Positions 7,280 to 37,296 of a stretch of 64,000 bases of DNA are shown one piece after another (within the stretch, counting starts at the first letter, position 1; every line of letters begins with the position of its first letter). The translations under genes and the position numbers were made by a program. Where the stretch lies: assembly GCA_021776475.1 (NCBI GenBank), contig JAJFFV010000004.1, forward strand, positions 437 through 64,436. The letters are read 5' to 3'. This stretch comes from Parvularculaceae bacterium (GTDB lineage: Bacteria > Pseudomonadota > Alphaproteobacteria > Caulobacterales > Parvularculaceae). The notes below the pieces were generated by a model. That model was not told the DNA's origin. It searched no databases and saw nothing but the letters and a program-made list of their open reading frames with translations.

Positions 7280-7292
7280 TCTTCTCTCCTGT

Positions 7293-7480
7293 TTTAGATC
7301 AGTACACGACCGCTCATCTGGTTATTGATCCAGTGCATCACCGCCCCCTCACCCGCCTCCTCGAACGCCTGCAACGTTGGACGCGGGACTGTCGCTTTCA
7401 AGGGCTGCAAATGTGCGCACATTTTCCGCGCGGAATTTGTCTTCGGCTTCGTCATAGCTATAGAAAACCCGTCTGTTCAT
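7293..7480 (-). pseudogene. 5' stub of a TIR-like (DUF1863/ThsB-like) gene, frameshifted and truncated
   Basis: ATG at 7480 gives MNRRVFYSYDEAEDKFRAENVRTFAALES. A second frame gives PTLQAFEEAGEGAVMHWINNQMSGRVLI followed by a stop. This pattern matches the N-terminal half of TIR-like DUF1863 proteins (RRVFFSFHY..D..R...VRN ... WEE..K.GD.AI...I...... VLIG, recalled from memory). Confidence 0.4.
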
Positions 7481-7563
7481 TATGTCCCCTTATAGTTGGA
7501 TCGGTAGTGGTCTTGCCCGCCTGTGATATTTCCTCAGGTTACGGCTCAATAACCGCTGAGCGA

Positions 7564-8535: not shown

Positions 8536-9581
8536 GGTTGCCTCCCTAAAGATAAGGTTTTGGTTTTGAATTTTAATGCGGGGTGTTCAATGAGGTGCCA
8601 GGACAACGCAGCGCACCCAAGAAAGATGGGGCCGCCCGACAGCAGTAATTCCCACGGCGTCAGATCCGGCCACAGATAGACCAGTGCCTGCAAAACGGGA
8701 AAATGCCAGATGTAAATGCCGTAGGAATAGTCCGGCAGCTTGTGCAAAAACTGTAGCGGCCATTTCGACAGACCAAAATGCATGAGGGCAACCGCAATGG
8801 TGAAATTCCCAGAAATCTCGCCGAAAACGCTTTTCCCTGCCAGTACGAAAAGGATTGCAACCAGCGCCACCATCACCCTGCCCGGTGTTCTGGTTCGAGG
8901 CCAAAAATATAGTGCAAAGCCAATGCTGAATGCGGAGATCAGGCGAAAGAAGTCGTGGACTTCTTCACCAAGATTTGCGAACGCGGGGAAACTCAAAATG
9001 AAATTGAGCAACAACAAAATCAACGCCGCGATTGTGGCCCGCCACTTTGTGTGTACCCCACCATATGTAAACGCCAAGCCCGCAATTACATAACATGCAA
9101 TCTCAAAGCGGATCGTCCACAGCGGTGCATTGAAATGCGGCATGGCGTTACCGTCAAAAACGCCCGCAATTACGACGCGTGGTTCGCCCATGAGTAAGGT
9201 ACGAAAGAAAAACGACCATGCCTCCGGATCAAACAGGAAGCCGGCGCCGCCAGGATCTGAGAATATTGGCCCGAGCACAAACATCATAACCAGAAGTACT
9301 ACAACGAGCGCCGGGTATATGCGCAGAACGCGCGATCTGAAAAAAGACTGCAAATCTTGTCTGGTCGTGAGGCTTTTTGCGATGAGCAAACCTGAGAGAA
9401 TAAAGAACCCGTTCACCGCAAGATCGCTTGCTTGCCAGTTATAGAGGCCCAGAGGATCGTTGCCGTCCGTCACCTCCCAGGCATGGGCAAGGGCAACGGT
9501 CGCCGCCAGTATCCAGCGCATTGGTGTCAGATAATTCTTCTCGTCAAGCGGGTCATTGATAATGAGGATGTTGGATTTCAT
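8520..9581 (-). CDS. acyltransferase family 3 (OafA-like) integral membrane protein
   Basis: 353 aa, about 10 TM helices. N-terminal MRWILAATVALAHAWEV-type motif. Its stop overlaps the downstream gene by 16 nt. Confidence 0.65.
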   Translation of the reverse strand: MKSNILIINDPLDEKNYLTPMRWILAATVALAHAWEVTDGNDPLGLYNWQASDLAVNGFFILSGLLIAKSLTTRQDLQSFFRSRVLRIYPALVVVLLVMMFVLGPIFSDPGGAGFLFDPEAWSFFFRTLLMGEPRVVIAGVFDGNAMPHFNAPLWTIRFEIACYVIAGLAFTYGGVHTKWRATIAALILLLLNFILSFPAFANLGEEVHDFFRLISAFSIGFALYFWPRTRTPGRVMVALVAILFVLAGKSVFGEISGNFTIAVALMHFGLSKWPLQFLHKLPDYSYGIYIWHFPVLQALVYLWPDLTPWELLLSGGPIFLGCAALSWHLIEHPALKFKTKTLSLGRQPWKHS

Positions 9582-19095: not shown

Positions 19096-20391
19096 CTACT
19101 GGCGAGGACGCAGGATCACCGTATCCACAATCAGCTGGCAGCATTCAGGATGGCGGAAATAGTAAGTGTGTATGAGTTCGTTCCATTGGAAAGTATCTTG
19201 AAGTAAAGCAAGGGTGTCAGCTGACAGTTCGGGCGCATCGCTCATCATTTGTTTCATGAGCGGTACGCGCTCACCCAGAGCCTCATTTGTCCTGATTATC
19301 AGCTCATTGATAATTTCTTTCGGCAGATCAATAATCAATGAGGGTGATTGCGGAATCCGACTTACTGACAAGACATTCGTTCCAGGCGCTACTCCGAAGG
19401 CAGATGATTTGATGACATTTGTAAGCAACCGATTTAGCGATGGCGCTAAAGGCACTGATAAGACCCAGCCGAAGCACGAAAGCAATATAGTCAGGATGAC
19501 TGCCGCAAGAAAAAAAACAATGAACGCGAAGAAAAAACAGATGATAATTATAAATATCGTAAAGCCTGAGAAAACCAATTCGACTCCGTTCATTCCATAA
19601 ACAACAATTGGACCTATAAAAGCGATAATGGACAGCACGGAAGCCATTGGAATGGCAAGAGTTGTGAACCCGGTTGCCAGAGAACGGGTTCCAATCGGTT
19701 TGACTTTCAATCTGTGTACATTTTCCAGCAACTGTAAAGCTTCATCAGATTGATGAACTATAATGTTCATTTTATTGGGTCTGTACGAAAGGTATTTTCC
19801 TGTTACCCACCAGAATATTTTTCGAGCACGCGGAAAAAGGACCGGTCGAAACACAACAAGAGGAAAGCCAACCACAAGAAAAGCAGCAACGATTTCAGCG
19901 AGGTCGTTCATACTGCCATTGGCCTGCGTGGGAGTGATAAAATAAAACCCGTATGCTAGTACATAGTAAATTGAATATGCCAACGCGGCAGCAATAATCG
20001 CGATTAAAACCAACTCACGTCTGTTATACTGATATTGCACGCCCTTACGAGTTTTCAGAAATGGCGCCCCAACAGTTGTTATGTGCACATACATTCTTGC
20101 TGCGGGTTCTAAGTGTATCATGCACAGCTCTGCGACATTTCCCCCATGACTATGCGCGATAACTGCCACACGCTCTGATTTTGCAATCAATTTCAAGCAA
20201 TTTGACAGTTCTTTTGCTGCTTTCTCCCTCTCGTCCTGACTATTTTCACCGCTCCACCGAAACTGGATGATATCCTCTTCAGCTACATGTTCCGTTAGCT
20301 GTTGCCAGAACTGGCTACCCTTCTGCCACCAGCGGTCGCCCTCTAAGCTCTCATCGGTGTCAAATGTTCCATGAACCAGAACGTACTTCAT
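19096..20391 (-). CDS. membrane-embedded alpha/beta-hydrolase (lipase/esterase-like) with internal multi-TM block
   Basis: N-terminus VLVHGTFDT...WW...FRWSGENS...VAVIAHSHGGNVA (A-H-S-H-G nucleophile elbow). About 6 hydrophobic helices in the middle. C-terminus ...WNELIHTYYF (candidate catalytic His). Visibly AT-richer than the flanks. Confidence 0.6.
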   Translation of the reverse strand: MKYVLVHGTFDTDESLEGDRWWQKGSQFWQQLTEHVAEEDIIQFRWSGENSQDEREKAAKELSNCLKLIAKSERVAVIAHSHGGNVAELCMIHLEPAARMYVHITTVGAPFLKTRKGVQYQYNRRELVLIAIIAAALAYSIYYVLAYGFYFITPTQANGSMNDLAEIVAAFLVVGFPLVVFRPVLFPRARKIFWWVTGKYLSYRPNKMNIIVHQSDEALQLLENVHRLKVKPIGTRSLATGFTTLAIPMASVLSIIAFIGPIVVYGMNGVELVFSGFTIFIIIICFFFAFIVFFLAAVILTILLSCFGWVLSVPLAPSLNRLLTNVIKSSAFGVAPGTNVLSVSRIPQSPSLIIDLPKEIINELIIRTNEALGERVPLMKQMMSDAPELSADTLALLQDTFQWNELIHTYYFRHPECCQLIVDTVILRPRQ

Positions 20392-20543: not shown

Positions 20544-21227
20544 TCACCGGGCCTGTTTGGTTTTGGCAAATACGCTATAAAGAAGCCACTTTGGGAAATC
20601 ACGCTTAAGGATTGCCTGACCCTCGAGTTGGATCCGACCACTTGCTATCTCCGGCCGTATCGGTCGCAATCCCCTCCAAACTTCCGCTAAGGTTTGAACC
20701 CGGGTGCAAATGCGCAAATCAATCTCAAATCCTGTTGGTTTTGTGCACACGTCGACGGTGCTGTTCTCGCACACCAGCCAAAACAAGTGGTGGTTTCTTG
20801 GTGCATCCGTGAAGTCAATTTCCAACACAAGGCGCCCCGCGGGCATCACCGAAATATCAAGACGTCGGTGCATCGCCCAAACTAGCCAACCAGGATCAAG
20901 GTCATCTTTTTCGATGTCGCGCGCCCATCTTTGACCCCACTCGCCGATGCTGCCAAGAACAGTTTTGAGTTCTCGTCCCGCATCTGTCAGAATGTATTCG
21001 TCCGCATGGTTTTTATTGATCGGCTTTCGAATGAGCGCACCGGCGTCCTCCAATTGGTCAAGCCTTTGTTTTAGAAGTGTCGCTGAAATTCTCGGCACAC
21101 CTCGCCGGATGTCATTGAAGCGCGTGCTGCCAGCATTGAGCTCGCGGACGATAAGCAGCATCCATTTCTGCGTCAGGACTTCCGAGGCCAGAGCAATGGG
21201 GCAAAATTGACCGTAGTCTGATTTCAT
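20544..21227 (-). CDS. HxlR-family winged-helix regulator with C-terminal extension
   Basis: ATG at 21227. CPIALASEVLTQKWMLLIVRELNAGSTRFNDIRRGVPRISATLLKQRLDQLEDAGAL. Confidence 0.8.
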   Translation of the reverse strand: MKSDYGQFCPIALASEVLTQKWMLLIVRELNAGSTRFNDIRRGVPRISATLLKQRLDQLEDAGALIRKPINKNHADEYILTDAGRELKTVLGSIGEWGQRWARDIEKDDLDPGWLVWAMHRRLDISVMPAGRLVLEIDFTDAPRNHHLFWLVCENSTVDVCTKPTGFEIDLRICTRVQTLAEVWRGLRPIRPEIASGRIQLEGQAILKRDFPKWLLYSVFAKTKQAR

Positions 21228-21361
21228 GATGAACCTAAAAAAATGTCGTCCGCATGAGGCTAGCACTATTCATCTGGCAAATCTGGTCCAGATTATTGAC
21301 TGGATCAACGCAATTCCTTCTTTACTAGTGGACAAAATAATAACTATGGGTGACTTGATCG

Positions 21362-22066
21362 ATGATTTTCCCAAAAAAAGCTCCTATTATATCCCGTCGA
21401 AGCATTTTAGTCGGAGGGGCCGCACTCATGGCGACAATCAATTCAACGCCAGTTCTTGCAGCGAAAACGAAAGCGTTGAGAAGGAACACCTCGCAACCTC
21501 CATTTGACCGGAACCGCTTTGTCGAGGACTGTATTGCAGCGCATCATGAAACCGACTCGATTCCCGCTGTGCGAGACGTCTTGGCCCGCGCCGTTGCTGA
21601 TCACCAATCTGTGCTCGCTGGCCTTGGTGAACCGTCAGCAGCGGGATTGGACGTATTGCTCAGCTCCCCCACTCTCACGATTTTCGCGGCGCAATGGACG
21701 CCGCAAATGAATCTACTGCCCCACGATCACGCGATGTGGGCCTTGATAGGCATTTATACCGGACGCGAAGACAATATATTTTGGCGGCGACAGAACGGTG
21801 AAATTGAAGCCTATGGGGCCAATTGTTTGTTCGAAGGCGATGTTGCGACCTTGCCCGCTGAGGTCATTCATTCGGTAACAAACCCGCTCCTTAGATTTAC
21901 GGGCGGCATTCACATTTATGGCGGTGATTTTTTTGACACAGCGCGCACACAGTGGGACCCCGAAACGCTCATCGCGGAGCCCTCAGACGGTGATTCTATC
22001 CGTGACATGTTCGCGCGAGAAAATGCACGCCGAAAACTTGCCTCCGGTGGCAGGTCTACCCAATAA
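21362..22066 (+). CDS. Tat-signal double-stranded beta-helix (cupin-like) metal-dependent protein
   Basis: SRRSILVGGAALMATINSTPVLAA Tat-like signal. HDHAMWALIGIYTGRE ... EVIHSVTNP ... GGIHIYGGDFF. Divergent from the HxlR gene. Confidence 0.55.
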   Translation: MIFPKKAPIISRRSILVGGAALMATINSTPVLAAKTKALRRNTSQPPFDRNRFVEDCIAAHHETDSIPAVRDVLARAVADHQSVLAGLGEPSAAGLDVLLSSPTLTIFAAQWTPQMNLLPHDHAMWALIGIYTGREDNIFWRRQNGEIEAYGANCLFEGDVATLPAEVIHSVTNPLLRFTGGIHIYGGDFFDTARTQWDPETLIAEPSDGDSIRDMFARENARRKLASGGRSTQ

Positions 22067-22411: not shown

Positions 22412-23710
22412 ATGAACCTTTCCAGGCGAGCCTACCAAAATGCCGTCACTGCAGCAGGTCATCTGCTTGCCGGAGAAAAACCGATCCGCATTTTGCGATC
22501 CCTCAATTGGCCGGCCGAAACGGGCCATGCTTTTCTGGCCTCTGGCGGGCAGACGCTTCCGGTTATCGAATACCCACCCTTCGACGGCACGGAGACCCGG
22601 GCGCAGCTAGCAGCTGCGAGGGCCCTATTGGTCGGCGATCACCCAGTTTTTGCGTGGCTGCGGCGCACAGCCGACAAACTTGAACTTGCGGCGGCCATGC
22701 TCGAAAACATTGGCAGCGCGGCATTTTATCAATACAGCCAGCGCCTCTACGGGACACCAGAGCGTGTGTTACTAGACGGGGTCACAAAGACGATTAATCT
22801 GGCGCGACACTTGGATGATGCCCTCGCCAATCTCGATTTCGGGCAGTTAGTCGTGGGCGGTACCGAAGAAGAGATGAACGCAGAGGAATTCGCCGGCCAG
22901 CTAGCTGGGCGGCTGCCAAAATATTTCCAGGATCAGGCCCCAGCAATTGAGATTGATGAGAATATGTCCTCCAAAGCGGCGGCTGGGTCGCGCCGTATAC
23001 GCATCAGCAAGACCGCCACCTTCTCGGCGATGGACGTTCATCAGCTGATGATGCATGAAGCGCTGGTTCATACGGCAACCGCGCTGAACGGCCGGGCGCA
23101 GACAGAGTTTCCAATCCTGGGCGCTGGCCATGCCGGCACGACAGAAATTCAGGAAGGCCTGGCCGTGTTCGCCGAATTGATCAGCGGCGCGCTGGATCCG
23201 ATCCGGTTCCGCCGTCTGGTTGACCGGGTCATTGCCATTCAGATGTCAGTCGACGGCGCGGATTTTATCGAGGTATACAAGTATTTTCTCGGGCAACACG
23301 AGAAACCAGCCCAGGCATTCGATGATACACGACGGGTTTTTCGCGGCGGCGTCATCACCGGTGGCGCGCCGTTTACCAAAGACGGCGTTTATCTGAATGG
23401 TCTGCTCCGGGTGCACAACTTCATGCGCACTGTCATTAAGCTGCGGCGGGCCGACCTGATCAGATTGCTGTTTGTCGGCAAGCTTGACCTAGAAGACGTG
23501 CCGGCACTAGCCGCCTTAGCCACCAACGGACATCTGACACCGGCCAACATCCTGCCGCCATGGGCCAGAGACATGCGTTTTCTGGTGAGTTACCTTGCCT
23601 ATTCGTCTTTCCTCAATCAGGTAAAACTGCCTGGCCTGCAATCGTATTACACGACCATGTTGGACGAAGTGCCTGATGTCTGGGATTTCACTGATTCTGG
23701 AAACGCCTGA
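22412..23710 (+). CDS. DUF1704 / QEGLA-motif protein (flavohaemoglobin expression-modulating family, putative metallo-carboxypeptidase)
   Basis: Literal TTEIQEGLAVFAE string and an HEALVH string. ATG at 22412 chosen within ORF 22313..23710. Confidence 0.75.
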   Translation: MNLSRRAYQNAVTAAGHLLAGEKPIRILRSLNWPAETGHAFLASGGQTLPVIEYPPFDGTETRAQLAAARALLVGDHPVFAWLRRTADKLELAAAMLENIGSAAFYQYSQRLYGTPERVLLDGVTKTINLARHLDDALANLDFGQLVVGGTEEEMNAEEFAGQLAGRLPKYFQDQAPAIEIDENMSSKAAAGSRRIRISKTATFSAMDVHQLMMHEALVHTATALNGRAQTEFPILGAGHAGTTEIQEGLAVFAELISGALDPIRFRRLVDRVIAIQMSVDGADFIEVYKYFLGQHEKPAQAFDDTRRVFRGGVITGGAPFTKDGVYLNGLLRVHNFMRTVIKLRRADLIRLLFVGKLDLEDVPALAALATNGHLTPANILPPWARDMRFLVSYLAYSSFLNQVKLPGLQSYYTTMLDEVPDVWDFTDSGNA

Positions 23711-23878
23711 GCCACTAATTTTTCTCATCACACGACGGATCTTCATTGAGCTGTGCTGAAAATTTACGACTTCCTCAGGTGGGAGACCTGAAGGACGCCA
23801 TGTGGGCCAGTGCGATAGCACACGATCATTGCAGAATTCTACCCGAATGTGACCCTATTCTTGTTAGTCAGTCATTCT

Positions 23879-24115
23879 TTAGTCAGATAATAAAATGTAT
23901 TTTGCGTCGATTACAGTCAAACATATAAGGAGAAATGCTGCACTAAAATCTCCAGCGTCAAGTTTCGCCGTTAGTTCTTTTGCGCCAATATCATATCCCT
24001 GCTGATCAAGGAGCGTCGACAGTTTCTCATGTGTCATTTTTTTTCGTTGAATTTCTTCTCTCAGCAGTTTTGTGGCGCGTGCTCTGTATTCTTGCTTCAG
24101 CGAGGTTGGCATCAT
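23879..24115 (-). CDS. small DUF6471-like protein
   Basis: 78 aa. KLLREEIQRKKMTHEKLSTLLDQQGYDIGAKELTAKLDAGDFSAAFLLICLTVI resembles the DUF6471 pattern (from memory). Confidence 0.4.
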   Translation of the reverse strand: MMPTSLKQEYRARATKLLREEIQRKKMTHEKLSTLLDQQGYDIGAKELTAKLDAGDFSAAFLLICLTVIDAKYILLSD

Positions 24116-24377
24116 AGTATTTGCCTCCGAAATACGGTTGATGTTTATATACCATATTTCAGTGATTGACCAAGGCCGGGGTTACCAAATTATACGGATG
24201 AAATATGGGGAACACACTGTATCGTCAACTTTGCGCACTCTTTGCTGTTTACCCTCCTCTTGGTTCCTCTCAGTAAGCTAAAAATCACAAATTGATATGG
24301 ATCACTATTTCAGTTGCAACATGGACGAGAAAGAGAATCACCCGACCCGTTAGGGCTCGATCCAATACCGCGCCTTG

Positions 24378-25418
24378 TCAGGTGTATTCCATGCCGTCGA
24401 ACAATGGATCATTTTCAGCCTCAAGTTCTACTGCTGCAAATGCTTCTTCCGCGTCATCCATGCTATCGACGCAAGCAATGTGAAAGAGTGCATCACCGCG
24501 ATTTACAATTGGCAGATTGGAACGCCCAATGATGACGCCAGATTTGCTTGCCAGGACGTCTTCGTTGACACGTCCCAACGGATCGGAAACCTTGCCGATG
24601 ACCTCATTTTTGCTGACCTGAGCACCGAGCGGTTTTTCGTCGCGCAGGATACCGCCCATCGGCGCACGCAACCAATGGCTCGACATGGCACGAATGGGTT
24701 CGGTTCTTTTGGCCGAATCCTTCCCCTTTCGAAGCATGCCGATATGGCGCAGGACGCCGAGAACTCCTTTCACGCCGATGCGGATCGCAGGCTCGTCAAA
24801 TCGCAGTGCCTCGCCTGCCTCATAGAGCAAAGTGTTGCACCCTACTTCCTGTGCCGCTTGCCGAAGTGATCCGTCGCGCAAATTCGCGTTCAACATGATC
24901 GAGGCGCCAAAAGCACGCGCCATTGCCTCGACAATGGGATCGTCAAGATTTGCCCTGATCTGTGGCAAATTCGCCCGGTGCACAGCACCGCTGTGGAGAT
25001 CGATCCCGTACTCAGCGCGCTGAACAATCTCTGTCATAAAGATATGCGCCAGTTGGGCAGCAAGCGAGCCTGACACATTTCCAGGAAAACACCGGTTCAA
25101 ATCACGCCGGTCAGGAAGATATCGTGAAAGCGCGACAAAACCATAAGTATTAACTACCGGAACAAGGATGAGCGTACCGCGCAATCGGCTTAGTAGTTTG
25201 AGTTCTGTCAATCTTCGGATAATCTCGACACCGATAATTTCATCGCCGTGGATTGCCGCGCTCACGAATGTGACCGGTCCGGCCTTTCGGCCATGCATCA
25301 CCTGAACTGTCAGATGCATCTGTGTGTGGTCGGACAGATAGCTCAATGGCAAGTCAATCACCCGGTGTTCACCCGGTTTGATTTTCTCACCGCCAAGTTC
25401 AAATTCACTTACCGGCAT
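24378..25418 (-). CDS. succinylglutamate desuccinylase/aspartoacylase (AstE/AspA, M14-like) family zinc hydrolase
   Basis: VSAAIHGDEIIGVEIIRRL (HxxE zinc site). ATG at 25418 lies 5 nt after the rimK stop. Confidence 0.75.
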   Translation of the reverse strand: MPVSEFELGGEKIKPGEHRVIDLPLSYLSDHTQMHLTVQVMHGRKAGPVTFVSAAIHGDEIIGVEIIRRLTELKLLSRLRGTLILVPVVNTYGFVALSRYLPDRRDLNRCFPGNVSGSLAAQLAHIFMTEIVQRAEYGIDLHSGAVHRANLPQIRANLDDPIVEAMARAFGASIMLNANLRDGSLRQAAQEVGCNTLLYEAGEALRFDEPAIRIGVKGVLGVLRHIGMLRKGKDSAKRTEPIRAMSSHWLRAPMGGILRDEKPLGAQVSKNEVIGKVSDPLGRVNEDVLASKSGVIIGRSNLPIVNRGDALFHIACVDSMDDAEEAFAAVELEAENDPLFDGMEYT

Positions 25419-25422
25419 ACTA

Positions 25423-26328
25423 TTAGCCTTTCCCGCGCGTTTTCGTCTTGCTGGGTTTTGCATCTTTCTCGAGATACTCGATGATCATGCTCGCCACATC
25501 TTTTTGGGTTGCTTTTTCAAGACCTTCGAGGCCCGGCGATGAATTCACTTCCATCACGACAGGGCCAGAATTGGCACGCAACAAATCGACCCCGCACACG
25601 TTCAGTCCCATGGCCTTGGCGGCCGTTACAGCGGTCTGTCGCTCGAGCGGGCTAATTTTAACCATTTCAGCCGTACCACCACGATGAAGGTTCGACCGGA
25701 AGTCGCCCTCTTTACCCTTTCGCAGCATCGCGGCGACAACCTTATCGCCAATCACGAAACACCGCAGATCCTGGCCACCTGCTTCTTTGATAAACTGTTG
25801 GACAAGAATGTTGGTTTTAACGCCGCCAAATGCTTGGATGATCGATTCCGCTGCCTTTTGGGTTTCACCAAGAACGACACCGATACCTTGCGTTCCTTCG
25901 AGTAGTTTGATGATCACCGGCGGCCCACCGGCCATGTCGATGATCTCCTCTGCCTGGGATGTTCTGTGTGCGAACACTGTTACAGGTAGACCGACACCCT
26001 TACGGGCCAGTAACTGCATGCTTCTAAGCTTGTCGCGGGAACGTGTTATTGCAACAGATTCATTCAACGGATAAACCCCCATCATTTCAAACTGCCGCAG
26101 AACGGCAGTACCGTAGAATGTGACAGATGCTCCAATCCGGGGAATGACGGCATCGTAATGCGGTAGAATTTCCCCAGAGTACCGAATAGTCGGTTTGCTT
26201 GACGTTATATTGATATAACAGCGCAAGTGATCAAGGACATCAATCTCGTGGCCACGTTGTTTGGCCGCTTCAACAAGCCTTTTGTGCGAGTATAAATTCG
26301 GATTTCTGCAAAGTAGAGCGATTTTCAT
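25423..26328 (-). CDS. rimK: RimK-type ATP-grasp alpha-L-glutamate ligase
   Basis: [33 protein letters not shown] plus ATP-grasp core, 301 aa. Confidence 0.85.
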
Positions 26329-26330
26329 GA

Positions 26331-26759
26331 TTATTCTCCGTGTTTAATTTTCATTTTTCTTCTTTTACGGCCAGCACAATATGAGCGGCCAGGATCGACG
26401 ACAAATTTGGTTCGCACGGCTTCACGACCAATCAGCATGCGGAAGCCGAGGTCATCCCGGTTCGTCAACGTAAGTTCGATCGTCAGGTTTTTATTGCCGA
26501 TTACTGCCGTGGTTTTGACGACATATCTTGTTTCGCTGTGCCCCGTGGAGCTCTTGATTTTTCGTTGCTCCAACACCGGTGCCACACACTTTATCTCCGG
26601 CAATCGGCGGCGCTGCAGTGGGTGAATATAAAACTCGACATGGGGCGTTCCATCTTTTTCAAAAGGGCGGATGCGGAGTGCATGCAAGGCTGATGTTCTT
26701 GCTCCAGTGTCTATTTTAGCGTTGATCGGCTGCACCCCGAATTCCGGAAGCGTCACCAT
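26331..26759 (-). CDS. retropepsin-like aspartic endopeptidase (DUF785, the 'ATP-dependent zinc protease' family partnered with RimK)
   Basis: [35 protein letters not shown] extends to 26909, but that extension overlaps the upstream ORF, so the ATG at 26759 is taken. Confidence 0.65.
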
Positions 26760-26814
26760 TTCTCGCCAACCGATGACACTTTTTTTCCCTAGTGCATTCA
26801 GATCGACGTTGCTG

Positions 26815-27117
26815 TCAGTGTTTTGTTTCCGGGCGCTCCCCGGTGCTCTCGAAACTCGCTTCGCCGAGGCGCCGGTAACTTGCGAAAGTGCGTGCGTTCG
26901 CAACTGCATAATGGGTCTCCATATCTAATAGGACGAAACCGAGTTCAAACATTTCGTCTGTCAGGTCCTTGAGAAAGCTGTCAGGGAGCTTTTTTCGATC
27001 CGCGATCTTGCGCAGCATCTTTGGTGATATCCGGTAGCGGCCACTGACTTTGCCGCCGAAGGGCTTTTCATAAAGGTCAGCGAGTTTCCTGGCGATGTCT
27101 GGGATCGATGGTCGCAT
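26815..27117 (-). CDS. hypothetical 100-aa protein leading the rimK operon
   Basis: Protein-like charged/helical sequence (IARKLADLYEKPFGGKVSGRYRISPKMLRKIADRKKLPDSFLKDLTDEMFELGFVLLD). No motif recognised. Confidence 0.4.
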   Translation of the reverse strand: MRPSIPDIARKLADLYEKPFGGKVSGRYRISPKMLRKIADRKKLPDSFLKDLTDEMFELGFVLLDMETHYAVANARTFASYRRLGEASFESTGERPETKH

Positions 27118-27223
27118 AATTTAGCCTCCTGCATGATCTAAATACTCACAAATAACACGCCATAGCAACAAAAATGTTTGCTATAGCTGCATTTTATGTA
27201 TATTTGGTGGAAAGAACCCTGTC

Positions 27224-28204
27224 GTGAGGAGCACATTTGTGGCAATATTGCAGATATTTCTCGGGCTAATTTGCCTCGGCCTTGGCGGTGATGCCTTGGT
27301 GCGGGGCGCCGTTGGGGTGGCCGAGCGGCTGAAAATCTCACCCCTGGTGACCGGACTGGTTTTGGTCGGTTTTGGCACTTCCATGCCTGAGCTGGTTACC
27401 AGCTTGAATGCTGTGCTGAAAGGCTCATCCGGCCTTGCAATTGGCAATGTCGTCGGCAGCAACATCGCCAATATTCTTCTGATCCTGGGGCTGACGGCAA
27501 TGATCTTTCCTATTGCCACCGATCCAAAGGCGTTCAAGCGTGACGCGCCGATGCTTGCATTTGCCACTGTCGCATGCGTGATCTTCGCGTTCAACGGAGA
27601 ATTCGGGCGCATCACCGGTTTTGCATTTGTAAGTTTTTTGCTGGCTTACGTCGTTTTCACTTATCTGACTGAAAGGCAAACACATGATGCACAGGCCCAA
27701 CTCCACATAGACGCGACAAAACTCGTCGCACCTTCAACACGGCCCTTTTGGCTGAGTGTTCTGATCGCCGCTACAGGCATCACCTTAGTTATTCTTGGTG
27801 CGCATTGGATCGTCACCGGATCAATAACAATAGCCCGTACGTTCGGTGTCTCAGAAACAGTGATTGGCCTCACAATTGTTGCGGTCGGTACATCCCTGCC
27901 TGAACTCGCAACGTCCATTGCCGCTGCCATTCGAAAACAGACTGATATTGCTTTCGGTAACATCGTTGGCAGCAACATATTCAACACTCTTGGTATTTTA
28001 GGCGCGACGTCAATGATCGTACCAATCACGGTGCCCGCAAATGTCCTGACCTACGATTTATGGATACTCATTGTCGTAACAGCACTTCTTTTATGGGCTG
28101 CCTTTACCGATGCGCGGTTGTCACGCCGTGAAGGTGCTGTATTCCTTGGACTCTACATTGCGTATCTGGGATTTCTGGCGGTGCGGGCTGCCGGTGCCAC
28201 GTAG
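27224..28204 (+). CDS. Ca2+/Na+ antiporter (CaCA, YrbG-like)
   Basis: Two alpha-repeats, GFGTSMPELVTSL and GTSLPELATSI. 10 TM helices. Confidence 0.85.
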   Translation: MRSTFVAILQIFLGLICLGLGGDALVRGAVGVAERLKISPLVTGLVLVGFGTSMPELVTSLNAVLKGSSGLAIGNVVGSNIANILLILGLTAMIFPIATDPKAFKRDAPMLAFATVACVIFAFNGEFGRITGFAFVSFLLAYVVFTYLTERQTHDAQAQLHIDATKLVAPSTRPFWLSVLIAATGITLVILGAHWIVTGSITIARTFGVSETVIGLTIVAVGTSLPELATSIAAAIRKQTDIAFGNIVGSNIFNTLGILGATSMIVPITVPANVLTYDLWILIVVTALLLWAAFTDARLSRREGAVFLGLYIAYLGFLAVRAAGAT

Positions 28205-28313
28205 GTCTACAGAAAGGTACAGAAGGGGTATCGCTCTGTACAAACAATACTGAGATCACCGGTAGAATTGATGAGGGTGATGCAGATGCTGATTAATAGA
28301 GAAAGGTAATACC

Positions 28314-29165
28314 ATGGAATCCGCTTCATCGTTGATTTTAACACTTCAGGAGGCAGTTGGAAATGCAATTGCTGCTGCGGCCGCTTATGCGCCATCGTTA
28401 ATCGCCGCAATATTGGTTTTGCTTGCCGGATGGTTCGTTGCGCGGTTTGCGCGTGTTATAACGCACCGCGTCCTTTCTGGAGCAAACCGCCTGCTGGATA
28501 GACTGCTTCAGCGCGGCACGTTGTCGGGTATTCGGATGACGCCAACCGCCACAGCTGTCTCGGGCGAGGTGTCGTTTTGGGTCATTATCTTTCTGTCGAT
28601 CACCATCGCCGCGCGGATCGCCAAATTGCCTGCGCTTTCTGGATGGCTCAATCAAATAGCTGGGCATTTGCCCAACCTTCTAGTCGGCGCTGCAATAATC
28701 GTAGCTGGTTATTTCGTAAGCGTGATTGCAGGCGAGCAGGTCACTGCAACAGCTCGGGCCGCCAAGGCCGGGCAAAGCGCGCTTATGGGCCGTTTTGCTC
28801 AAGGAGCGATCTTCGTGACAGCGTTAATCATTGGCCTCGACCAGGTCGGCGTTGATGTAACGTTTCTCGTCGCACTGTTTGCAGTTGCCGTCGGGGCTAT
28901 TTTTATCGGGTTCTCGATAGCCTTCGGTCTTGGCGCCCGCGACTTTGTGAGCAATCTAATCGGCGCACGAACAGCACATCAGAAATTGCGTCCAGGTGTG
29001 ATGGTGCGCATCGGTGGCATCGAAGGCGAGATACTCGAAATTACGCCGACGCAAATTGCCCTTGATACATCTGACGGACGAACTCTTGTGCCGGCACGGC
29101 TAACAGAAGAAAGCGGTTTGGTGATCCTTACTTCCGAACAAAGCAAAGGAGCGAGCGATGAGTAG
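28314..29165 (+). CDS. small mechanosensitive-channel-like membrane protein
   Basis: Repeated TM helices, then LRPGVMVRIGGIEGEILEITPTQIALDTSDGRTLVP (MscS beta-domain-like). Confidence 0.5.
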   Translation: MESASSLILTLQEAVGNAIAAAAAYAPSLIAAILVLLAGWFVARFARVITHRVLSGANRLLDRLLQRGTLSGIRMTPTATAVSGEVSFWVIIFLSITIAARIAKLPALSGWLNQIAGHLPNLLVGAAIIVAGYFVSVIAGEQVTATARAAKAGQSALMGRFAQGAIFVTALIIGLDQVGVDVTFLVALFAVAVGAIFIGFSIAFGLGARDFVSNLIGARTAHQKLRPGVMVRIGGIEGEILEITPTQIALDTSDGRTLVPARLTEESGLVILTSEQSKGASDE

Positions 29166-30009
29166 TGTTTCGCCACTGACACTTGCGTTTATTGAGAAGC
29201 GGCCATCATCGGTGGCGCAATCACTGACGGCAATGGAAACCGATGACGCGGCAGCGTTCCTTGAAACAATCCCTACACGGTACGCTGCGAATACGGTTTC
29301 ACACATGGGTGCATGGTCGGCCTCTGGATTGTTGACAAGGATGAATGCATCTGCCAGCGCTGCCGTCCTGCGGGAGCTGGAGTATCACACCGCTGCAGCG
29401 ATTCTCCGAATGATGGCGGAGAGTGATCGCCTCTTGCTTTTGGATTTATTGCCAAAAAAGTTGCACCGGGATCTGGAAACGTCCCTGTCGTTTCCTGAGG
29501 ACACTGTCGGGGCGAAAATGACTACGAGCATCATGGTTTTGAACCATGATCAAACAGTTGCTGACGCATTGGCTGAACTGAAGCGATCACACCGGGCAAA
29601 AGCAGAAGTCGTATTTGTTATCGACGCCGCCAGGAGGCTGAAAGGCGCGGTAACTGCAGCATCTTTGCTGCATCAGTCTTTGGCGTCACCGTTGACCGAA
29701 ATGATGGACACAACAGTTGTTCCGCTTTCGGCGCGCGCTCGGCTTGGCGCAATTGCCTCGCTAGACGCCTGGGATGAATACGCTCAACTGCCCGTGCTGA
29801 GCCGAAAAAAACTCGTGATCGGTGCGTTGTCACGCAAGGCAGCCAAGCAGCATGGCCGTACCGGCGCACAAGTGCCCGGAGCGCCCACATCCTCAATTGC
29901 CGTTGCGATTGCAAACGCCTTCTTCACGAGCGCTATCGGGTTGGGGCAATTGCTGGCTGACGTTGACCAACCGCTACAGCCACCGAAACAACAAGGAGGT
30001 CGGTCATGA
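29158..30009 (+). CDS. MgtE N-domain + CBS-pair protein lacking the MgtE channel domain
   Basis: MgtE_N-like helical repeat (AAAFLETIP...AAAILRMM) and a CBS pair (MTTSIMVLNHDQTVADAL...VFVIDAARRLKGAVT). ATGA overlap with mgtE. Confidence 0.65.
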   Translation: MSSVSPLTLAFIEKRPSSVAQSLTAMETDDAAAFLETIPTRYAANTVSHMGAWSASGLLTRMNASASAAVLRELEYHTAAAILRMMAESDRLLLLDLLPKKLHRDLETSLSFPEDTVGAKMTTSIMVLNHDQTVADALAELKRSHRAKAEVVFVIDAARRLKGAVTAASLLHQSLASPLTEMMDTTVVPLSARARLGAIASLDAWDEYAQLPVLSRKKLVIGALSRKAAKQHGRTGAQVPGAPTSSIAVAIANAFFTSAIGLGQLLADVDQPLQPPKQQGGRS

Positions 30010-31313
30010 GTGCTGATCCTATTCGCGCTGCAGACGCCCTAAACCAGCGTTTCTTTATTGACCACCCACTGGATGCAGCGCGCAAGATTGAAGAGTTGAG
30101 CGCGTCAGACGTTGTCGAAGCCACCAAACGACAATCCGTCAAAATTCTGACACCCGTCTGGCGGCAGCTTTTGCCGGAAACTGCGGCGAACCTGTTACGC
30201 GCCTTGCCCGAGGCAATGGCAGATCAGTTGCTTTGCGAAGTGCCCGCTGCACAGGCTGTACGCCTTCTTGGGCATATGCCGGATGAAGAAGTTGCCTCGC
30301 GCCTTTCACGGCTAGATCCCGCAATCAAAAAAGATCTTGAAATGCTTCTCTCCTATCCGCGCGATACAGCTGGCCGTTTGATGAGCACGAATGTCTCTAC
30401 GTTCCGAAAGGACGCGACAGCTGGTGAGACATTGAACAGGCTGCGCGAAAGCGGCATGACGACGGCCAAGAGTCTTTTTCTTGTGGATGACGCACAGAAA
30501 TTAACTGGCAGGGCTGCCTTGACTGATGTTGCCCTGGCGCCGTTGCACAAAACTCTCGGCGAACTTGAGCAACCGCTCGTTACGGTTGTCCGGCCGATTG
30601 ATTCGCTCACTGAGGTAACCAAAGCGTTTGAAAGTGGAAAAATTCTCGATCTCCCGGTTGTTGACGTTGATGGCGTTTTCCTCGGTGCCGTCACCCATGA
30701 TGATATTGCCCGGACAATCAAAAAAGACGCGACAACGAACCTGCAGACAATGGTTGGTGCCAGCAAAGAGGAGCGTGCCCTTTCCAGTCCGATTTTCACA
30801 GTTCGTAAGCGCATGCCATGGTTACAAGTCAATCTTGTAACTGCGTTTATGGCGGCAGCGGTTGTCGGGATTTTTGAGGGCACCATCGCTCAAGTGACGG
30901 CGTTAGCGGTTTTGTTGCCGGTCGTCGCTGGTCAGTCGGGCAACACGGGTGCCCAAGCGCTCGCGGTAACGATGAGAGGTCTTGCTCTAAGGGAGATTAC
31001 TGTGCGGCAATGGGCACGTGTACTTCGTAAAGAGGTGATCGCAGGCTTTTTAAACGGAATTGCCATTGCCACTACTTGCGGCATTGGTGTTTATATTTGG
31101 AGCCAATCGCTCGGACTTGTGGCCGTGATCATGTCGTCAATGGTGCTTGCGATGGTTGCAGCTGGTTTCGCCGGGGCGATTATCCCCGTGGTCCTGACGC
31201 GATTGGGGCAGGATCCCGCAACCTCGTCATCGATCATTCTCACAACGGTAACTGATATTGCCGGTTTCTTCGCCTTCCTGGGCATCGCCACTTTGATGAT
31301 GCAGTTTTTGTAA
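30006..31313 (+). CDS. mgtE: magnesium transporter MgtE (full length)
   Basis: N-domain, CBS pair, and a 5-TM channel domain with VVAGQSGNTGAQALAVTMRGLAL. Confidence 0.9.
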   Translation: MSADPIRAADALNQRFFIDHPLDAARKIEELSASDVVEATKRQSVKILTPVWRQLLPETAANLLRALPEAMADQLLCEVPAAQAVRLLGHMPDEEVASRLSRLDPAIKKDLEMLLSYPRDTAGRLMSTNVSTFRKDATAGETLNRLRESGMTTAKSLFLVDDAQKLTGRAALTDVALAPLHKTLGELEQPLVTVVRPIDSLTEVTKAFESGKILDLPVVDVDGVFLGAVTHDDIARTIKKDATTNLQTMVGASKEERALSSPIFTVRKRMPWLQVNLVTAFMAAAVVGIFEGTIAQVTALAVLLPVVAGQSGNTGAQALAVTMRGLALREITVRQWARVLRKEVIAGFLNGIAIATTCGIGVYIWSQSLGLVAVIMSSMVLAMVAAGFAGAIIPVVLTRLGQDPATSSSIILTTVTDIAGFFAFLGIATLMMQFL

Positions 31314-31329
31314 AGTCTGGAGCCTTCTA

Positions 31330-32415
31330 TTGACCACTGATTTATTGAACCCCGCCGCTGTAGACGCAATCAAGTGGGTTGGAATCCTATTCTGTGTCAG
31401 CCAGTCAGCAATGTTTTCCGGTCTTAACCTGGCATATTTCAGCGTCAGTCGCTTACGGCTCGAGGTTGAAGTTGGCACAGGCAACAAATCGGCTGCCCGT
31501 ATTCTCAAGATGCGAGAAGATTCCAACTTTCTGTTGACGACAATCCTGTGGGGCAATGTCTGCATTAATGTCCTACTCACGCTGCTGTCAAATTCGGTAA
31601 TGGCAGGTGTCTTTGCATTTGGCTTTTCCACCGTTATAATTACACTATTCGGAGAGATCCTTCCGCAGGCGTATTTTTCACGCAACGCGATGAAGATTGG
31701 CGCCCGGCTTGCGCCGGTGTTGCGCGCCTATCAATATTTGCTTTATCCGGTGGCAAAACCAGTGGCACTCATGCTCGACTTGTGGCTCGGGAAAGAGGGC
31801 ATTCAATATCTTCGGGAGCGGGACATGCGCGAGATGATCCGGAAACATATGGCAGCCGCTGAGGCAGACCTCAGCCAGATTGAAGGACTGGGTGCGCTCA
31901 ACTTCCTTTCGATCGATGATGTTCCCACATCTCAAGAAGGTGAACCGCTTGACCCGCGCAGCATTATCGCCCTGCCGTTTGAGGGTAACCAGCCGACGTT
32001 TCCAACCAAATTCGGTTCTGAACGGCGTGCCTTTCTGCGTGCGTTGCAGGCGTCGGGCAAAAAATGGGCAGTAATAACAGACCTTGAAGACACTCCTCGC
32101 CTCGTCGTCGACGTTGATGGATATTTGCGCGCTGCGATATCTGAGCCCAAGACCTTTGAGCCAGAACAGCATTGCCATATGCCCATCATCATTCGTGAAC
32201 ACAACACACGCCTCGGGCATGTCTTGCAGCGCCTTGAAGTTCAACCTTCATACACGGGCGATAATGTTATCGACCGTGATGTTGTTTTGATATGGACCGA
32301 TGAGCGGCGCGTTATTACCGGGGCCGACATCCTGGGCCGCCTCTTGACCGGTATTTCAAAAATTCAAAGAAAAACAGAGAGTATCGGCGATGCAAATTCC
32401 AGAAAGTATAATTAG
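31330..32415 (+). CDS. CNNM/DUF21-domain transporter (CorB/HlyC-like)
   Basis: FSGLNLAYFS ... TTILWGNVCINVLL ... LFGEILPQAYF. TTG start. Confidence 0.7.
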   Translation: MTTDLLNPAAVDAIKWVGILFCVSQSAMFSGLNLAYFSVSRLRLEVEVGTGNKSAARILKMREDSNFLLTTILWGNVCINVLLTLLSNSVMAGVFAFGFSTVIITLFGEILPQAYFSRNAMKIGARLAPVLRAYQYLLYPVAKPVALMLDLWLGKEGIQYLRERDMREMIRKHMAAAEADLSQIEGLGALNFLSIDDVPTSQEGEPLDPRSIIALPFEGNQPTFPTKFGSERRAFLRALQASGKKWAVITDLEDTPRLVVDVDGYLRAAISEPKTFEPEQHCHMPIIIREHNTRLGHVLQRLEVQPSYTGDNVIDRDVVLIWTDERRVITGADILGRLLTGISKIQRKTESIGDANSRKYN

Positions 32416-34929: not shown

Positions 34930-37296
34930 TTAACCAGGGGAATCCTTAACTCTGCCCGTCACCGTTTTTTTTACGTGCAGATCTCTTTGCGGGAATGGGA
35001 TTTCAATGCCGGCTTGTTTGAAAGCATTGAAAGTTGCAATGCGTAGTTCATTTTGAACGATGATCCGATCATTGATGTCTTTGATAAACACTCGCATTTC
35101 AAAATCGAGAGAACTGTCACCAAACCCCTTGAAATAAATGGATGGTGCGGGGACTCTCACCACACGCTTATTGTCGGCCATGACTTGGTTCAGAGTTTGC
35201 AGCACCTGATCCGGGTCTTCATTGTATGAAACGCCTATAGGCAGGACGACACGATTAAATTTATCCTTATGGGTCCAATTAGTGACTGCTGACGAAATGA
35301 GTTCGGAATTGGGTACGATGATTGAAGACCGGTCCCAGGTCTCGATTTCGGTGGATCGAACACTGATGCGCTTGACAATACCCTCCCCGGACGAAACCAC
35401 GATCCAATCGCCAACTTTGATCGGCCGCTCAAACAGCAAGATCAGACCGGAGACGAAATTATTGACGATACTTTGCAGCCCAAAACCAATGCCGACCGAC
35501 AATGCGCCTGCGACAATTGCAAGACTAGCAAGATTGATACCCAGGACCGCAATGGCTGTTGTGATGCCGACAACTAGCCCAATATAGCCAAGTAATGTTC
35601 GGAACGAATTGCGCACCCCTTCATCAAGCCTAGCTTTGTCAAAGAAGCGCCTGTCCACTCCCTTCTGTATGTACCGGGTCGCGATCAAAATAATGGCGAA
35701 GGAGACAACGGCACTCAGAATTTGAGCCAGTGAGATTGTCACCGTCCCGATTTTGAATCCAAAGAATGCATCGATCAACCAGTCGCGCACTTCGACCCAG
35801 TCAAACCCAAGCACGATAAGCAAGATCGGCGTGAGCAAGGCGAAGAGGACAATGTCAGTGACTGTTCCAATCCAGAAATAAATCAGCTTGTCAGCGTCCG
35901 GTACAGCGTCAGCCATCGGTAGTTTCTTGGAACTTGCCCGCGATTCTGAAACATTTATCGCCTCGTGAATGACAACGCGCACAAACCATGCGACCGCAAT
36001 GAGGGCTGCTATTAAATATATCCTCGTGACAACAAATCGGGCGAGAGAACCATAGCCGACAAGCACCGCCGCGATCGCGAGGATGGCACTGACCATGATG
36101 ATATGGCGCAACTGTTTTCCTCTTTGGAGGGAACTCTCCGTGAACTGCACTTGCCGGGTCTGATCGATTTTCCAGATCCCGTCTCTGGTGAGAGCTAGGA
36201 GCAGTGCGGCCCCTATGATAGAAACGATACTGCCTTGCAGGCGGGCTAACTCTTCCGTACTGCCAAGATATTGAGCGCAAGTATTGAGCAAGGCATCGAC
36301 TGCAAATAGCATGGCAGCACTCAACAACAAGAGGCGCACGATCATTGAGCCGGACGATTGAAGCGGGACAAGGCGCCAATCGTGATATTTTGGCGCGAAG
36401 ACAGCTGTCGCTAGACCGTCGATAAAAAGGAGGCCTAGCACACCAAACCACACAGTTAGGGCAATTTGCTCAAGCCCGACGGTGATCAATCCCTGAGCCC
36501 GCATGGTTTCGTACACGACCCAGCCACCTATCACACCGGGAACAACACGACCAAGCACGCGCAAACCAGCTGCTGCGATACGCGATGATTTTGTTGGTTC
36601 ATACTTTTGCAGGCGATTCAGGAAGCTTGTATCGATCAAGTTTCTGACGGGTCCAAACATCAATAGGGCGAAGAGGAAAGCAGCAACAGAAAAACCGAAA
36701 GCCCAATTTCTGTTTTCGGCCAAAACCTGTTGTTGCCACCATTGCGGCCATTGCTCTGCGAACTTGGTCTGCCCGTCGGCAAAACTGCGCGCGGCAGGTA
36801 ACCAAACTGACGGTGTCAGCGGGGACGCCCCGCGTTTCAGAATATTGTCGTAGAATGCTTTTCGTCTAATATCAGAAACGTCCTGCAGTAATCGCGATGC
36901 CCTTAGGACATTTAGATCGGCCTGCCTGATCCCGTCATCAACGGATTGCATTTGGCCGGTCAGCGCCGCGCGGGCGCTCGCAATTTCAAACGCTTCATTT
37001 TGCCCTTGTTCAGGGGCAGCGCCGAGCTGGTCAAGGTCAGCCTGCAGATCGCTGCGCAATCCGCGCAGCGGTTTTAACACGGCGTTGGCTTCATCCCGTA
37101 TCAGGCGCAGTTGCTCCCTGATTGCCAGATAGTCGGCTTTGGGATCATTGGTGATCCGGTTGCCGAGTTCCTCAATCGTGGCTTGGCGGTTTTTTACACC
37201 ATCGAGGATGCTTGCATCCAAGGACGCTGCATAAGCCATATTGCACAAGCCTGCGGCCAATATCAGCGAACAATGGAGAAGGAGTTTTAGAGCCAT
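34930..37296 (-). CDS. large MscK/KefA-like mechanosensitive channel
   Basis: Signal peptide, periplasmic coiled-coil region, about 11 TM helices, and an MscS core (ERPIKVGDWIVVSSGEGIVKRISVRSTEIETWDRSSIIVPNSELIS). Start taken at the MALKLLL ATG (37296). Confidence 0.8.
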   Translation of the reverse strand: MALKLLLHCSLILAAGLCNMAYAASLDASILDGVKNRQATIEELGNRITNDPKADYLAIREQLRLIRDEANAVLKPLRGLRSDLQADLDQLGAAPEQGQNEAFEIASARAALTGQMQSVDDGIRQADLNVLRASRLLQDVSDIRRKAFYDNILKRGASPLTPSVWLPAARSFADGQTKFAEQWPQWWQQQVLAENRNWAFGFSVAAFLFALLMFGPVRNLIDTSFLNRLQKYEPTKSSRIAAAGLRVLGRVVPGVIGGWVVYETMRAQGLITVGLEQIALTVWFGVLGLLFIDGLATAVFAPKYHDWRLVPLQSSGSMIVRLLLLSAAMLFAVDALLNTCAQYLGSTEELARLQGSIVSIIGAALLLALTRDGIWKIDQTRQVQFTESSLQRGKQLRHIIMVSAILAIAAVLVGYGSLARFVVTRIYLIAALIAVAWFVRVVIHEAINVSESRASSKKLPMADAVPDADKLIYFWIGTVTDIVLFALLTPILLIVLGFDWVEVRDWLIDAFFGFKIGTVTISLAQILSAVVSFAIILIATRYIQKGVDRRFFDKARLDEGVRNSFRTLLGYIGLVVGITTAIAVLGINLASLAIVAGALSVGIGFGLQSIVNNFVSGLILLFERPIKVGDWIVVSSGEGIVKRISVRSTEIETWDRSSIIVPNSELISSAVTNWTHKDKFNRVVLPIGVSYNEDPDQVLQTLNQVMADNKRVVRVPAPSIYFKGFGDSSLDFEMRVFIKDINDRIIVQNELRIATFNAFKQAGIEIPFPQRDLHVKKTVTGRVKDSPG

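Follow-up and report, generated by a model that had tools for sequence, protein, structure and literature searches.

Does a glutamate ligase gene that lies within a few kilobases of several predicted hydrolase genes act together with all of them, and what would such an enzyme set do? This question is raised by a 64,000-nt stretch of DNA from a Parvularculaceae bacterium (the window), in which positions 22412–27117 encode RimK, a RimB-like retropepsin-type protease, an AstE/AspA-family zinc hydrolase (AstE-like), a MATCAP-family metallopeptidase (MATCAP-like) and a small protein of 100 amino acids (aa), orf100. A first-pass annotation of the locus had proposed that RimK and the three hydrolases form one writer/eraser set for C-terminal glutamate (Glu) tails, which would mirror the three enzyme classes of the eukaryotic tubulin code. 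The open reading frames (ORFs) and motifs on which it relied were all found in place by an ORF check and by Pfam and NCBIfam profile searches, which also served to assign the protein families. As set out below, we favour with moderate confidence a different grouping, in which orf100, rimB-like, rimK and astE-like form an operon that is a variant of the Rim system. In this operon, the AstE-like enzyme would clear short oligoglutamates, orf100 would act as the regulator, and the whole unit would serve an ionic or osmotic role.

The RimB-like, RimK and AstE-like genes

RimK and RimB are an experimentally established writer/eraser pair for the polyglutamylation of ribosomal protein S6 (PMC7343187, PMC11957791), and through this modification of the ribosome the pair, which has been characterised recently, tunes the bacterial proteome. 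RimB of Pseudomonas is an endopeptidase that requires at least 5–6 contiguous Glu residues, and it also stimulates the synthesis of poly-alpha-glutamate by RimK (PMC11957791). The RimK call for the window was borne out, as the protein scores 451.6 bits against the S6-glutamate-ligase equivalog NF007764 (cutoff 331) and covers the pre-ATP-grasp (PF18030) and ATP-grasp (PF08443) domains over their full length. The same holds for the aspartic protease of family DUF785 predicted upstream of rimK, since this family is PF05618, now renamed 'RimB-like'. The protease contains a DTGARTS motif and lacks an N-terminal hydrophobic signal. Its best NCBIfam match is RimB itself (NF052261), the top scorer among four retropepsin-like models, with 124.7 bits and thus below the cutoff of 200. 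The true start codon of this gene may be the ATG at 26759, and in relatives the called genes encode 143–175 aa. Packing on the minus strand is operon-like, with 2 nt separating the RimB-like stop from the start of RimK and 4 nt separating the stop of RimK from the start of the AstE-like gene; the orf100 and RimB-like ORFs may overlap.

To these two genes the AstE-like gene is tied by conservation. An alignment of the AstE-like subfamily retrieved 80 metagenomic loci, 52 of them with enough upstream sequence. In 45 of these 52 loci, RimK immediately precedes the AstE-like gene on the same strand, and in 3 more the two are adjacent in a different order; a RimB-like gene is present in 32 of 42 loci. 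The complete trio is also annotated in RefSeq for Phaeobacter inhibens, Vibrio europaeus, V. nigripulchritudo, Salinivibrio proteolyticus and the cyanobacterium Acaryochloris marina, and Robiginitomaculum antarcticum has the RimK–AstE-like pair. The AstE-like gene belongs to the RimB-like/RimK unit, and this part of the originally proposed grouping stands. At the one haloarchaeal locus inspected, an AstE-like plasmid locus of Haloferax larsenii, no rimK was found nearby; the haloarchaeal plasmid matches (~30–37% identity) may represent a different, RimK-independent subfamily.

Around the unit, further genes were observed in individual genomes. In R. antarcticum (L169), a gamma-glutamyltranspeptidase gene (7130–8920, minus strand) is divergent from RimK–AstE, and the RimB-like gene is absent from the operon. 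In Vibrio europaeus (L171, 3325–5046) and Salinivibrio (L172, 7719–9116), the rimK module is bordered by diguanylate cyclase genes, an arrangement that echoes the control of the Pseudomonas rim operon by cyclic di-GMP through RimA.

The AstE-like protein matches the family PF24827 (AstE_AspA_cat) with 126.4 bits (cutoff 25) and carries the HGDE motif. Across 12 homologues, the zinc triad (H57-x-x-E60 and H142), the carboxylate clamp (N108-R109) and the general base (E200) are invariant, and these catalytic residues align to 3CDX and DoeB (6TWL), the best solved relatives in a sequence search of the Protein Data Bank (PDB). The subfamily is strongly conserved, with 63–85% identity across families. 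All specific equivalogs failed, namely DoeB (TIGR02994, 90.6 bits against 402.7), AstE (TIGR03242, 16.9 against 305.65) and aspartoacylase (21.7 against 180). Judged by its sequence, the protein is a member of the AstE/AspA/DoeB/CphZ branch and, on these scores, of a subfamily distinct from AstE, DoeB and aspartoacylase proper. The initial label 'M14-like AstE-family hydrolase' is therefore right with respect to the AstE/AspA family and the M14 fold, but the enzyme is not of the CCP type: no Pfam match to Peptidase_M14 or to the CCP-specific N-terminal domain was obtained at E<=0.01, and no CCP occurs among the PDB sequence matches.

The substrates of all characterised AstE, AspA, DoeB and CphZ enzymes are small N-acyl amino acids or dipeptides, and CphZ serves as terminal dipeptidase in the breakdown of cyanophycin, a polymer that is likewise made by an ATP-grasp enzyme (PMC9974463). 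Because RimB needs a run of several Glu residues, the short oligoglutamates would be left without a known hydrolase. Based on the operon context, the chemistry of the AstE/AspA family and the CphZ precedent, we infer that the AstE-like enzyme may hydrolyse short alpha-oligoglutamates or Glu-Glu beyond the reach of RimB to free glutamate. RimK and the RimB-like protease would then run a cycle of glutamate polymerisation and depolymerisation, with the protease cutting the longer runs as established for Pseudomonas RimB. Possibly, the AstE-like enzyme would also take the last extra residues off S6, although such direct trimming seems less likely than the hydrolysis of oligoglutamates.

If direct trimming were its main activity, the AstE-like protein would be a true protein deglutamylase, analogous to the CCPs, that removes Glu residues from S6 singly, on or off the ribosome, at tail lengths below the RimB threshold of 5–6. 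The M14-type fold (PMC9974463), the N-R carboxylate-binding motif and an H-x-x-E...H zinc triad typical of carboxypeptidases are in line with this idea, as are the tight linkage to an S6-ligase equivalog and the last ~5 residues that RimB cannot remove. However, the characterised members of the branch use closed active sites for their small substrates, and the missing Peptidase_M14 and CCP domains also speak against it. Such a role is thus unlikely in our view, and the clearing of short oligoglutamates is the function that we prefer for this enzyme.

Table 1. Features of the examined region and of the divergent ion-transport string, with positions in the window.
Feature	Position	Strand	Basis or remark
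MATCAP-family (PF08014) gluzincin-like metallopeptidase	22412..23710	+	Pfam E=4e-118; convergent neighbour, not conserved operon member
DUF6471 ORF, 78 aa	23879..24115	-	PF20075, E=4e-15
AstE/AspA-family (M14-fold) zinc hydrolase; predicted oligo-/di-alpha-glutamate hydrolase	24378..25418	-	PF24827, E=1.3e-36
RimK, ATP-grasp alpha-L-glutamate ligase (S6 C-terminal glutamylation, poly-alpha-glutamate synthesis)	25423..26328	-	NF007764, PF08443, PF18030
RimB-like retropepsin-type aspartic endopeptidase	26331..26909 (maximal ORF)	-	PF05618, E=6.4e-35
orf100, 100 aa; probable winged-helix-type regulator	26815..27117	-	conserved family, no Pfam/NCBIfam match
Palindrome GCCATAGCAA-N9-TTGCTATAGC, two CTATAG-type hexamers; candidate operator	27159..27187	.	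inverted-repeat search
Na/Ca exchanger	27224-28204	+	Pfam/NCBIfam
MS_channel_1st_1 protein	28314-29165	+	Pfam/NCBIfam
MgtE_N protein	29158-30009	+	Pfam/NCBIfam
MgtE	30006-31313	+	Pfam/NCBIfam
CNNM	31330-32415	+	Pfam/NCBIfam

The MATCAP-like gene

The MATCAP-like protein matches PF08014 with 395 bits over profile positions 2–365 of 365 and contains both the HEALVH and the QEGLA strings. The earlier statement that DUF1704 is the family of MATCAP was correct, as PF08014 is now named MATCAP in Pfam. Among relatives, H215-E216-x3-H220 and Q247-E248-G249 are invariant. These residues match the metal site of HExxxH and a downstream E-G that has been defined for human TMCP1/MATCAP, an enzyme with both deglutamylase and detyrosinase activity; eukaryotic MATCAP/TMCP enzymes are indeed deglutamylases (PMC10499314). 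With its active site intact, the MATCAP-like enzyme looks active. It scores 279.7 bits against the QEGLA-motif equivalog TIGR02421, below the cutoff of 338.65. A Foldseek search with an AlphaFold2 (AF2) model of poor quality (pLDDT 61) returned human MATCAP (7Z5G and 7Z6S) as its top five matches (E=2e-4, probability 1.0, TM 0.35–0.44), and searches of the PDB chain sequences with the single sequence (phmmer) and with a profile (hmmsearch) gave no match, MATCAP entries included.

The genomic setting of this enzyme was compared in 80 loci of its closest relatives (44–64% identity, many phyla, 10-kb flanks). Clustering of their neighbours revealed none common to more than 11 loci, and a Pfam census of 118 immediate neighbours contained no ATP-grasp enzyme and only clade-specific synteny (RF3, L21, LptE, AAA). 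RimK, RimB and AstE are near none of the 21 closest relatives, which come from Robiginitomaculum, Hellea, Algimonas and Litorimonas. On the operon side, none of the 80 AstE-like loci contains a MATCAP-like gene, 30 of them with at least 5 kb of downstream sequence. In the nearest relatives of the window operon, the corresponding position is occupied by a transglutaminase-like gene (L166) or by AHSA1 and helix-turn-helix genes (L167). The nearest MATCAP-like relative (L168, 70% identity) is flanked by radA-like and GH16 genes, and in cultured R. antarcticum the MATCAP-like gene is ~465 kb away from RimK–AstE on the same contig. Since the adjacency is absent both in the relatives and across the 80 loci, this placement of the MATCAP-like gene next to the operon is not a conserved feature.

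Within the window, the MATCAP-like gene is convergent to the operon, and its stop is 668 nt from the AstE-like stop, with the DUF6471 ORF in between. This ORF has no counterpart in any of 160 related loci and is therefore a local insertion. By the best matches of both the MATCAP-like and the AstE-like proteins, the window belongs to a marine alphaproteobacterial metagenome-assembled genome near Hyphomonadaceae/Robiginitomaculum.

RimK was detected within 10 kb of a MATCAP-like gene in only 4 of the 80 MATCAP-like loci, which represent three lineages (L040/L054, L041 and L073), and the AstE-like gene is absent within 10 kb in all four. The two genes are divergent in Haliangium (L041) and convergent in Paraglaciecola (L073). 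In Granulosicoccaceae (L040, 1684–8472; L054, 9941–16237), one strand carries the MATCAP-like gene, a gene for an SNF2-family helicase of 1100–1290 aa and then a RimB–RimK fusion; this string sits downstream of leuS and lptE. With a chance expectation of ~0.1–0.4 such loci, three or more would arise with a probability of 2e-4 to 7e-3. We read this link between the MATCAP-like gene and RimK as a weak, facultative association and not as operon membership.

These data bear on the proposal that the RimB-like, AstE-like and MATCAP-like enzymes work with RimK as one writer/eraser set on the Glu tails of S6, in parallel to TTLL, CCP and MATCAP. The conserved HExxxH and E-G catalytic set, the removal of polyglutamate by eukaryotic TMCP/MATCAP enzymes (PMC10499314) and the above-chance proximity to RimK in four loci would fit such a set, and so would the occurrence of a MATCAP-like gene inside a string of MS-channel, MgtE_N and MgtE genes in SAR324 (L070). 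Yet there is no conserved neighbour of the MATCAP-like gene at the sequence or Pfam level, neither sample of 80 loci nor the closest relatives keep it beside the trio, and the AstE-like enzyme is not a CCP. One common set is therefore highly doubtful, and the mirror of the tubulin code was mostly not recovered; the lack of co-conservation, which the first-pass annotation had itself named as an argument against its proposal, is what was found for this gene. The MATCAP-like protein is a catalytically intact, normally stand-alone metallocarboxypeptidase outside the operon. It might act on similar acidic C-termini, and its adjacency to the operon is mostly an accident. That a 'bacterial tubulin code' via MATCAP is mostly unsupported is useful to know before effort is invested in it.

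Several observations concern the surroundings of these genes. The SAR324 metagenome-assembled genome (L070, 4969–12297) contains, on one strand, MS_channel_1st_1, MgtE_N/CBS, MgtE, a 624-aa pyruvate-kinase-barrel protein, the MATCAP-like gene and then an MscS fragment, an ion-transport string like that flanking the window operon; RimK is absent. The gene that takes the MATCAP-like position in L166 (11260–12087, minus strand), the closest relative that shares the ion-transport flank, encodes a protein with Bact_transglu_N and Transglut_core domains and is convergent to the AstE-like gene. It recalls RloB, the transglutaminase partner in the related rlo operon. In the window, the genes upstream of the MATCAP-like gene encode a protein of 234 aa whose N-terminus is twin-arginine-like and which has no match in Pfam (21362–22066, plus strand), an HxlR-type regulator (20544–21266, minus strand) and a membrane protein of 431 aa with a weak match to an alpha/beta-hydrolase N-domain (19096–20391, minus strand). 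None of the three is kept beside MATCAP-like genes elsewhere.

The leader gene orf100 and the ion-transport neighbourhood

The gene orf100 is preceded by an AGGAGG ribosome-binding site 8 nt upstream of its ATG. It is a real, conserved gene with 29 homologous protein clusters (60–84% identity), which are almost always found directly upstream of RimB–RimK–AstE. A partial exception is L161, where the queried copy lies ~6 kb from the operon and a second, 93-aa paralogue takes the upstream position. The initial annotation had left open whether orf100 is a substrate or a regulator. As a RimK substrate it was rejected, because the C-termini of the family are variable and neither acidic nor of the Glu-Glu type (...TKH, ...TLQ), the predicted topology resembles a winged helix and an operator-like palindrome is present upstream. 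The AF2 model (pLDDT 75) displays a helix-strand-helix-helix-strand-strand topology, for which Foldseek found no significant match, the weak matches being mostly winged-helix domains.

In the window, the palindrome occupies the middle of the 106 bp of intergenic DNA between the divergent genes. Its general form, TATAGCA-N10/11-TGCTATA, recurs ~40–70 nt upstream of the start codon of every close orf100 homologue (L086, 4796–4819; L161, 7936–7960; L162/L163, 7935–7958; L166, 8225–8249; L167, 8224–8248), with a half-site in L164 and variant CTATAG/CTATGG pairs at the divergent homologues L090, L093 and L129. When 2.2 Mb were scanned with at most one mismatch, 8 matches were obtained, 7 of them upstream of orf100 homologues, compared with ~1.8 expected by chance according to our own estimate. 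The remaining match is within a coding sequence of L097 and was taken as chance. Given the linkage to the operon, the winged-helix-like topology of the model and a palindrome specific to orf100 loci, orf100 is probably the DNA-binding regulator of the operon, and the palindrome is a candidate operator. The protein would bind the CTATAG palindrome in a promoter region shared with the divergent operon for the Na/Ca exchanger, the MS-channel-like protein, MgtE and CNNM.

This divergent ion-transport string (27224–32415, plus strand) flanks the operon also in L166 and L161. The six commonest neighbour clusters of the operon loci are CorA, Na/H exchanger, MgtE, MscS, MS_channel_1st_1 and CNNM, and at least one of them occurs in 15 of 46 unbiased loci with a flank of at least 4 kb. 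By hidden Markov models (HMMs), ion-transport genes were counted in 18 of 80 operon loci and in 3 of 80 control (MATCAP-like) loci (Fisher p=7e-4), a comparison that is biased by the origin of the HMMs from the operon loci themselves. In Vibrio europaeus, rimK, the AstE-like and RimB-like genes, a Mg transporter gene, CorA, MscS and then a universal stress protein gene follow each other on one strand, the Mg-transporter gene overlapping with the RimB-like gene. Ectoine genes precede the module in V. nigripulchritudo, where it has MscS at its end. Ion-transport genes were also noted at 34930–35982 (minus strand) of the window and in L094, L137, L145, L171 (V. europaeus), L172 and L175.

Published data point in the same direction: rimK of Photobacterium damselae is induced 52-fold at low salinity (PMC10308900), brackish genomes show an enrichment of the orthologue group of rimK, K05844 (PMC10219603), and the related rlo operon is required for hypo-osmotic tolerance (PMC12239564). 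In our literature search, no paper describing a linkage of the rim operon to these ion transporters was found. The recurrence of Mg2+ transporters, mechanosensitive channels and cation exchangers next to the operon suggests ionic or osmotic adaptation as its physiological setting, in which either the glutamate cycle or the modification of S6 would be deployed.

The same neighbourhood could be explained by an operon largely unrelated to S6, in which RimK and the AstE-like enzyme build up and break down a compatible solute or cation buffer, be it a small glutamyl compound or poly-glutamate, with ribosome modification being incidental. Linkage to MscS, MgtE, CorA, CNNM, Na/H-exchanger, ectoine and universal-stress genes would agree with this, and free poly-alpha-glutamate is indeed made by RimK and boosted by RimB (PMC11957791). 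Moreover, some RimK-family enzymes listed in NCBIfam make small glutamyl metabolites, and DoeB, the nearest characterised relative of the AstE-like enzyme, serves the catabolism of the osmolyte ectoine. But RimK scores far above the cutoff of the S6-ligase equivalog here, and a RimB-type protease recognises protein-borne poly-Glu tails, so that we consider this explanation quite improbable.

A more far-reaching proposal takes the module as an ionic/osmotic 'capacitor' that reversibly converts the cytoplasmic (K+/Mg2+) glutamate pool to poly-alpha-glutamate and back, and/or retunes ribosomes via the S6 tail, co-regulated with MscS, MgtE, CorA, CNNM and cation/proton exchangers by the winged-helix regulator. 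Here, the MATCAP-family enzymes of bacteria would be deglutamylases and would occasionally replace the AstE-like enzyme; the AstE-like gene is missing from all four RimK-linked MATCAP-like loci. This proposal is speculative, and we judge it decidedly unlikely; if it were true, MATCAP deglutamylase chemistry would be ancestral to its role on tubulin.

The Rim variant in comparison with known systems

The reading of orf100, rimB-like, rimK and astE-like as a Rim variant with an oligoglutamate hydrolase has to be weighed against several points. The substrate of the AstE-like enzyme is assigned by operon context and family chemistry, and its closest characterised homologue, DoeB, deacetylates a small molecule that is not a glutamate compound. 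RimB-like identity carries the sub-cutoff score given above. Neither rpsF nor ORFs with a C-terminal EE nor E5 runs are present in the 64-kb window, and the C-terminus of S6 is thus not visible. The operon has orf100 in a minority of cases (4 of 80 unbiased loci), and the fold of orf100 is derived from a model of medium confidence for which no structural match was significant. Ion-transporter neighbours are limited to about a quarter to a third of the loci, and the bias of the control comparison counts here as well. Finally, scans for sigma-70 promoters and intrinsic terminators between 22000 and 27400 gave no excess over the shuffled expectation and do not inform the transcript boundaries.

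What the Rim variant would add is an enzyme for the short oligoglutamates left by RimB, a step missing from the published Rim model, for which the co-conserved AstE-like protein is a testable candidate. If this is true, it would be the first function for a large AstE-like subfamily of 'predicted deacylases'. The ion-transport linkage, together with the induction of rimK at low salinity, places the system in a marine or halophile ionic-osmotic context that the Pseudomonas work does not address. A literature search gave no relevant work tying RimK to desuccinylase, aspartoacylase, M14 or deacylase; the amidoligase paper by Iyer/Aravind (2009), which was not covered, may note RimK/AstE-like/DUF785 neighbourhoods.

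Among eukaryotic systems, the tubulin code (TTLL, CCP, MATCAP/TMCP) resembles the window in its enzyme types, since an ATP-grasp Glu ligase, an M14-fold zinc hydrolase and a PF08014 metallocarboxypeptidase with HExxxH lie within 5 kb here. The resemblance ends with the AstE-like enzyme, which does not belong to the CCPs (M14D), with the MATCAP-like gene, which is not co-conserved with the operon, and with the probable substrate, S6 or free poly-Glu instead of tubulin.

Cyanophycin turnover (CphA1, cyanophycinase, CphZ) offers a parallel in the division of labour, with an ATP-grasp enzyme that builds the polymer, a dedicated peptidase that fragments it and an AstE/AspA-family hydrolase that frees the amino acids. 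CphZ has the same zinc triad and catalytic Glu as the AstE-like protein, although the similarity of CphZ-like PDB entries is marginal (E ~5e-4) and confined to the N-terminal part. In contrast to the alpha-poly-Glu or S6 tails proposed here, the polymer is beta-Asp-Arg, and the fragmenting enzyme is the serine cyanophycinase and not a retropepsin.

In rloABC of Pseudomonas aeruginosa, which encodes the secreted retropepsin RloA, the inactive transglutaminase RloB and the ATP-grasp enzyme RloC, a retropepsin-like protease is likewise paired with a RimK-related ATP-grasp enzyme, and the phenotype is tied to hypo-osmotic stress tolerance (PMC12239564). However, the protease of the window scores higher with RimB (124.7 bits) than with RloA1-3 (64–68 bits) and has no signal peptide. 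Furthermore, the window operon has no seven-transmembrane transglutaminase, and its ATP-grasp enzyme is a bona fide RimK and not RloC.

The closest counterpart is rimABK/rimBK of Pseudomonas, whose two core enzymes recur in the window, closely spaced and in unchanged order; the window RimK scores above the equivalog cutoff, and the RimB-like protease has a DTG motif and no signal peptide. Unlike the Pseudomonas operon, the window operon lacks a gene for the EAL-domain protein RimA. Downstream of rimK, it has an additional, co-conserved AstE/AspA-family zinc hydrolase that is not mentioned in the published Rim accounts examined, and it is led by a small winged-helix-like gene with its own palindrome, while its neighbourhood repeatedly includes Mg2+, mechanosensitive and cation-exchange transporters. 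The unit in the window can be counted as a Rim system in a variant form: besides RimK and the RimB-like protease, it comprises a third, uncharacterised enzyme and a probable regulator of its own, and it is frequently coupled to genes for cation transporters and mechanosensitive channels.

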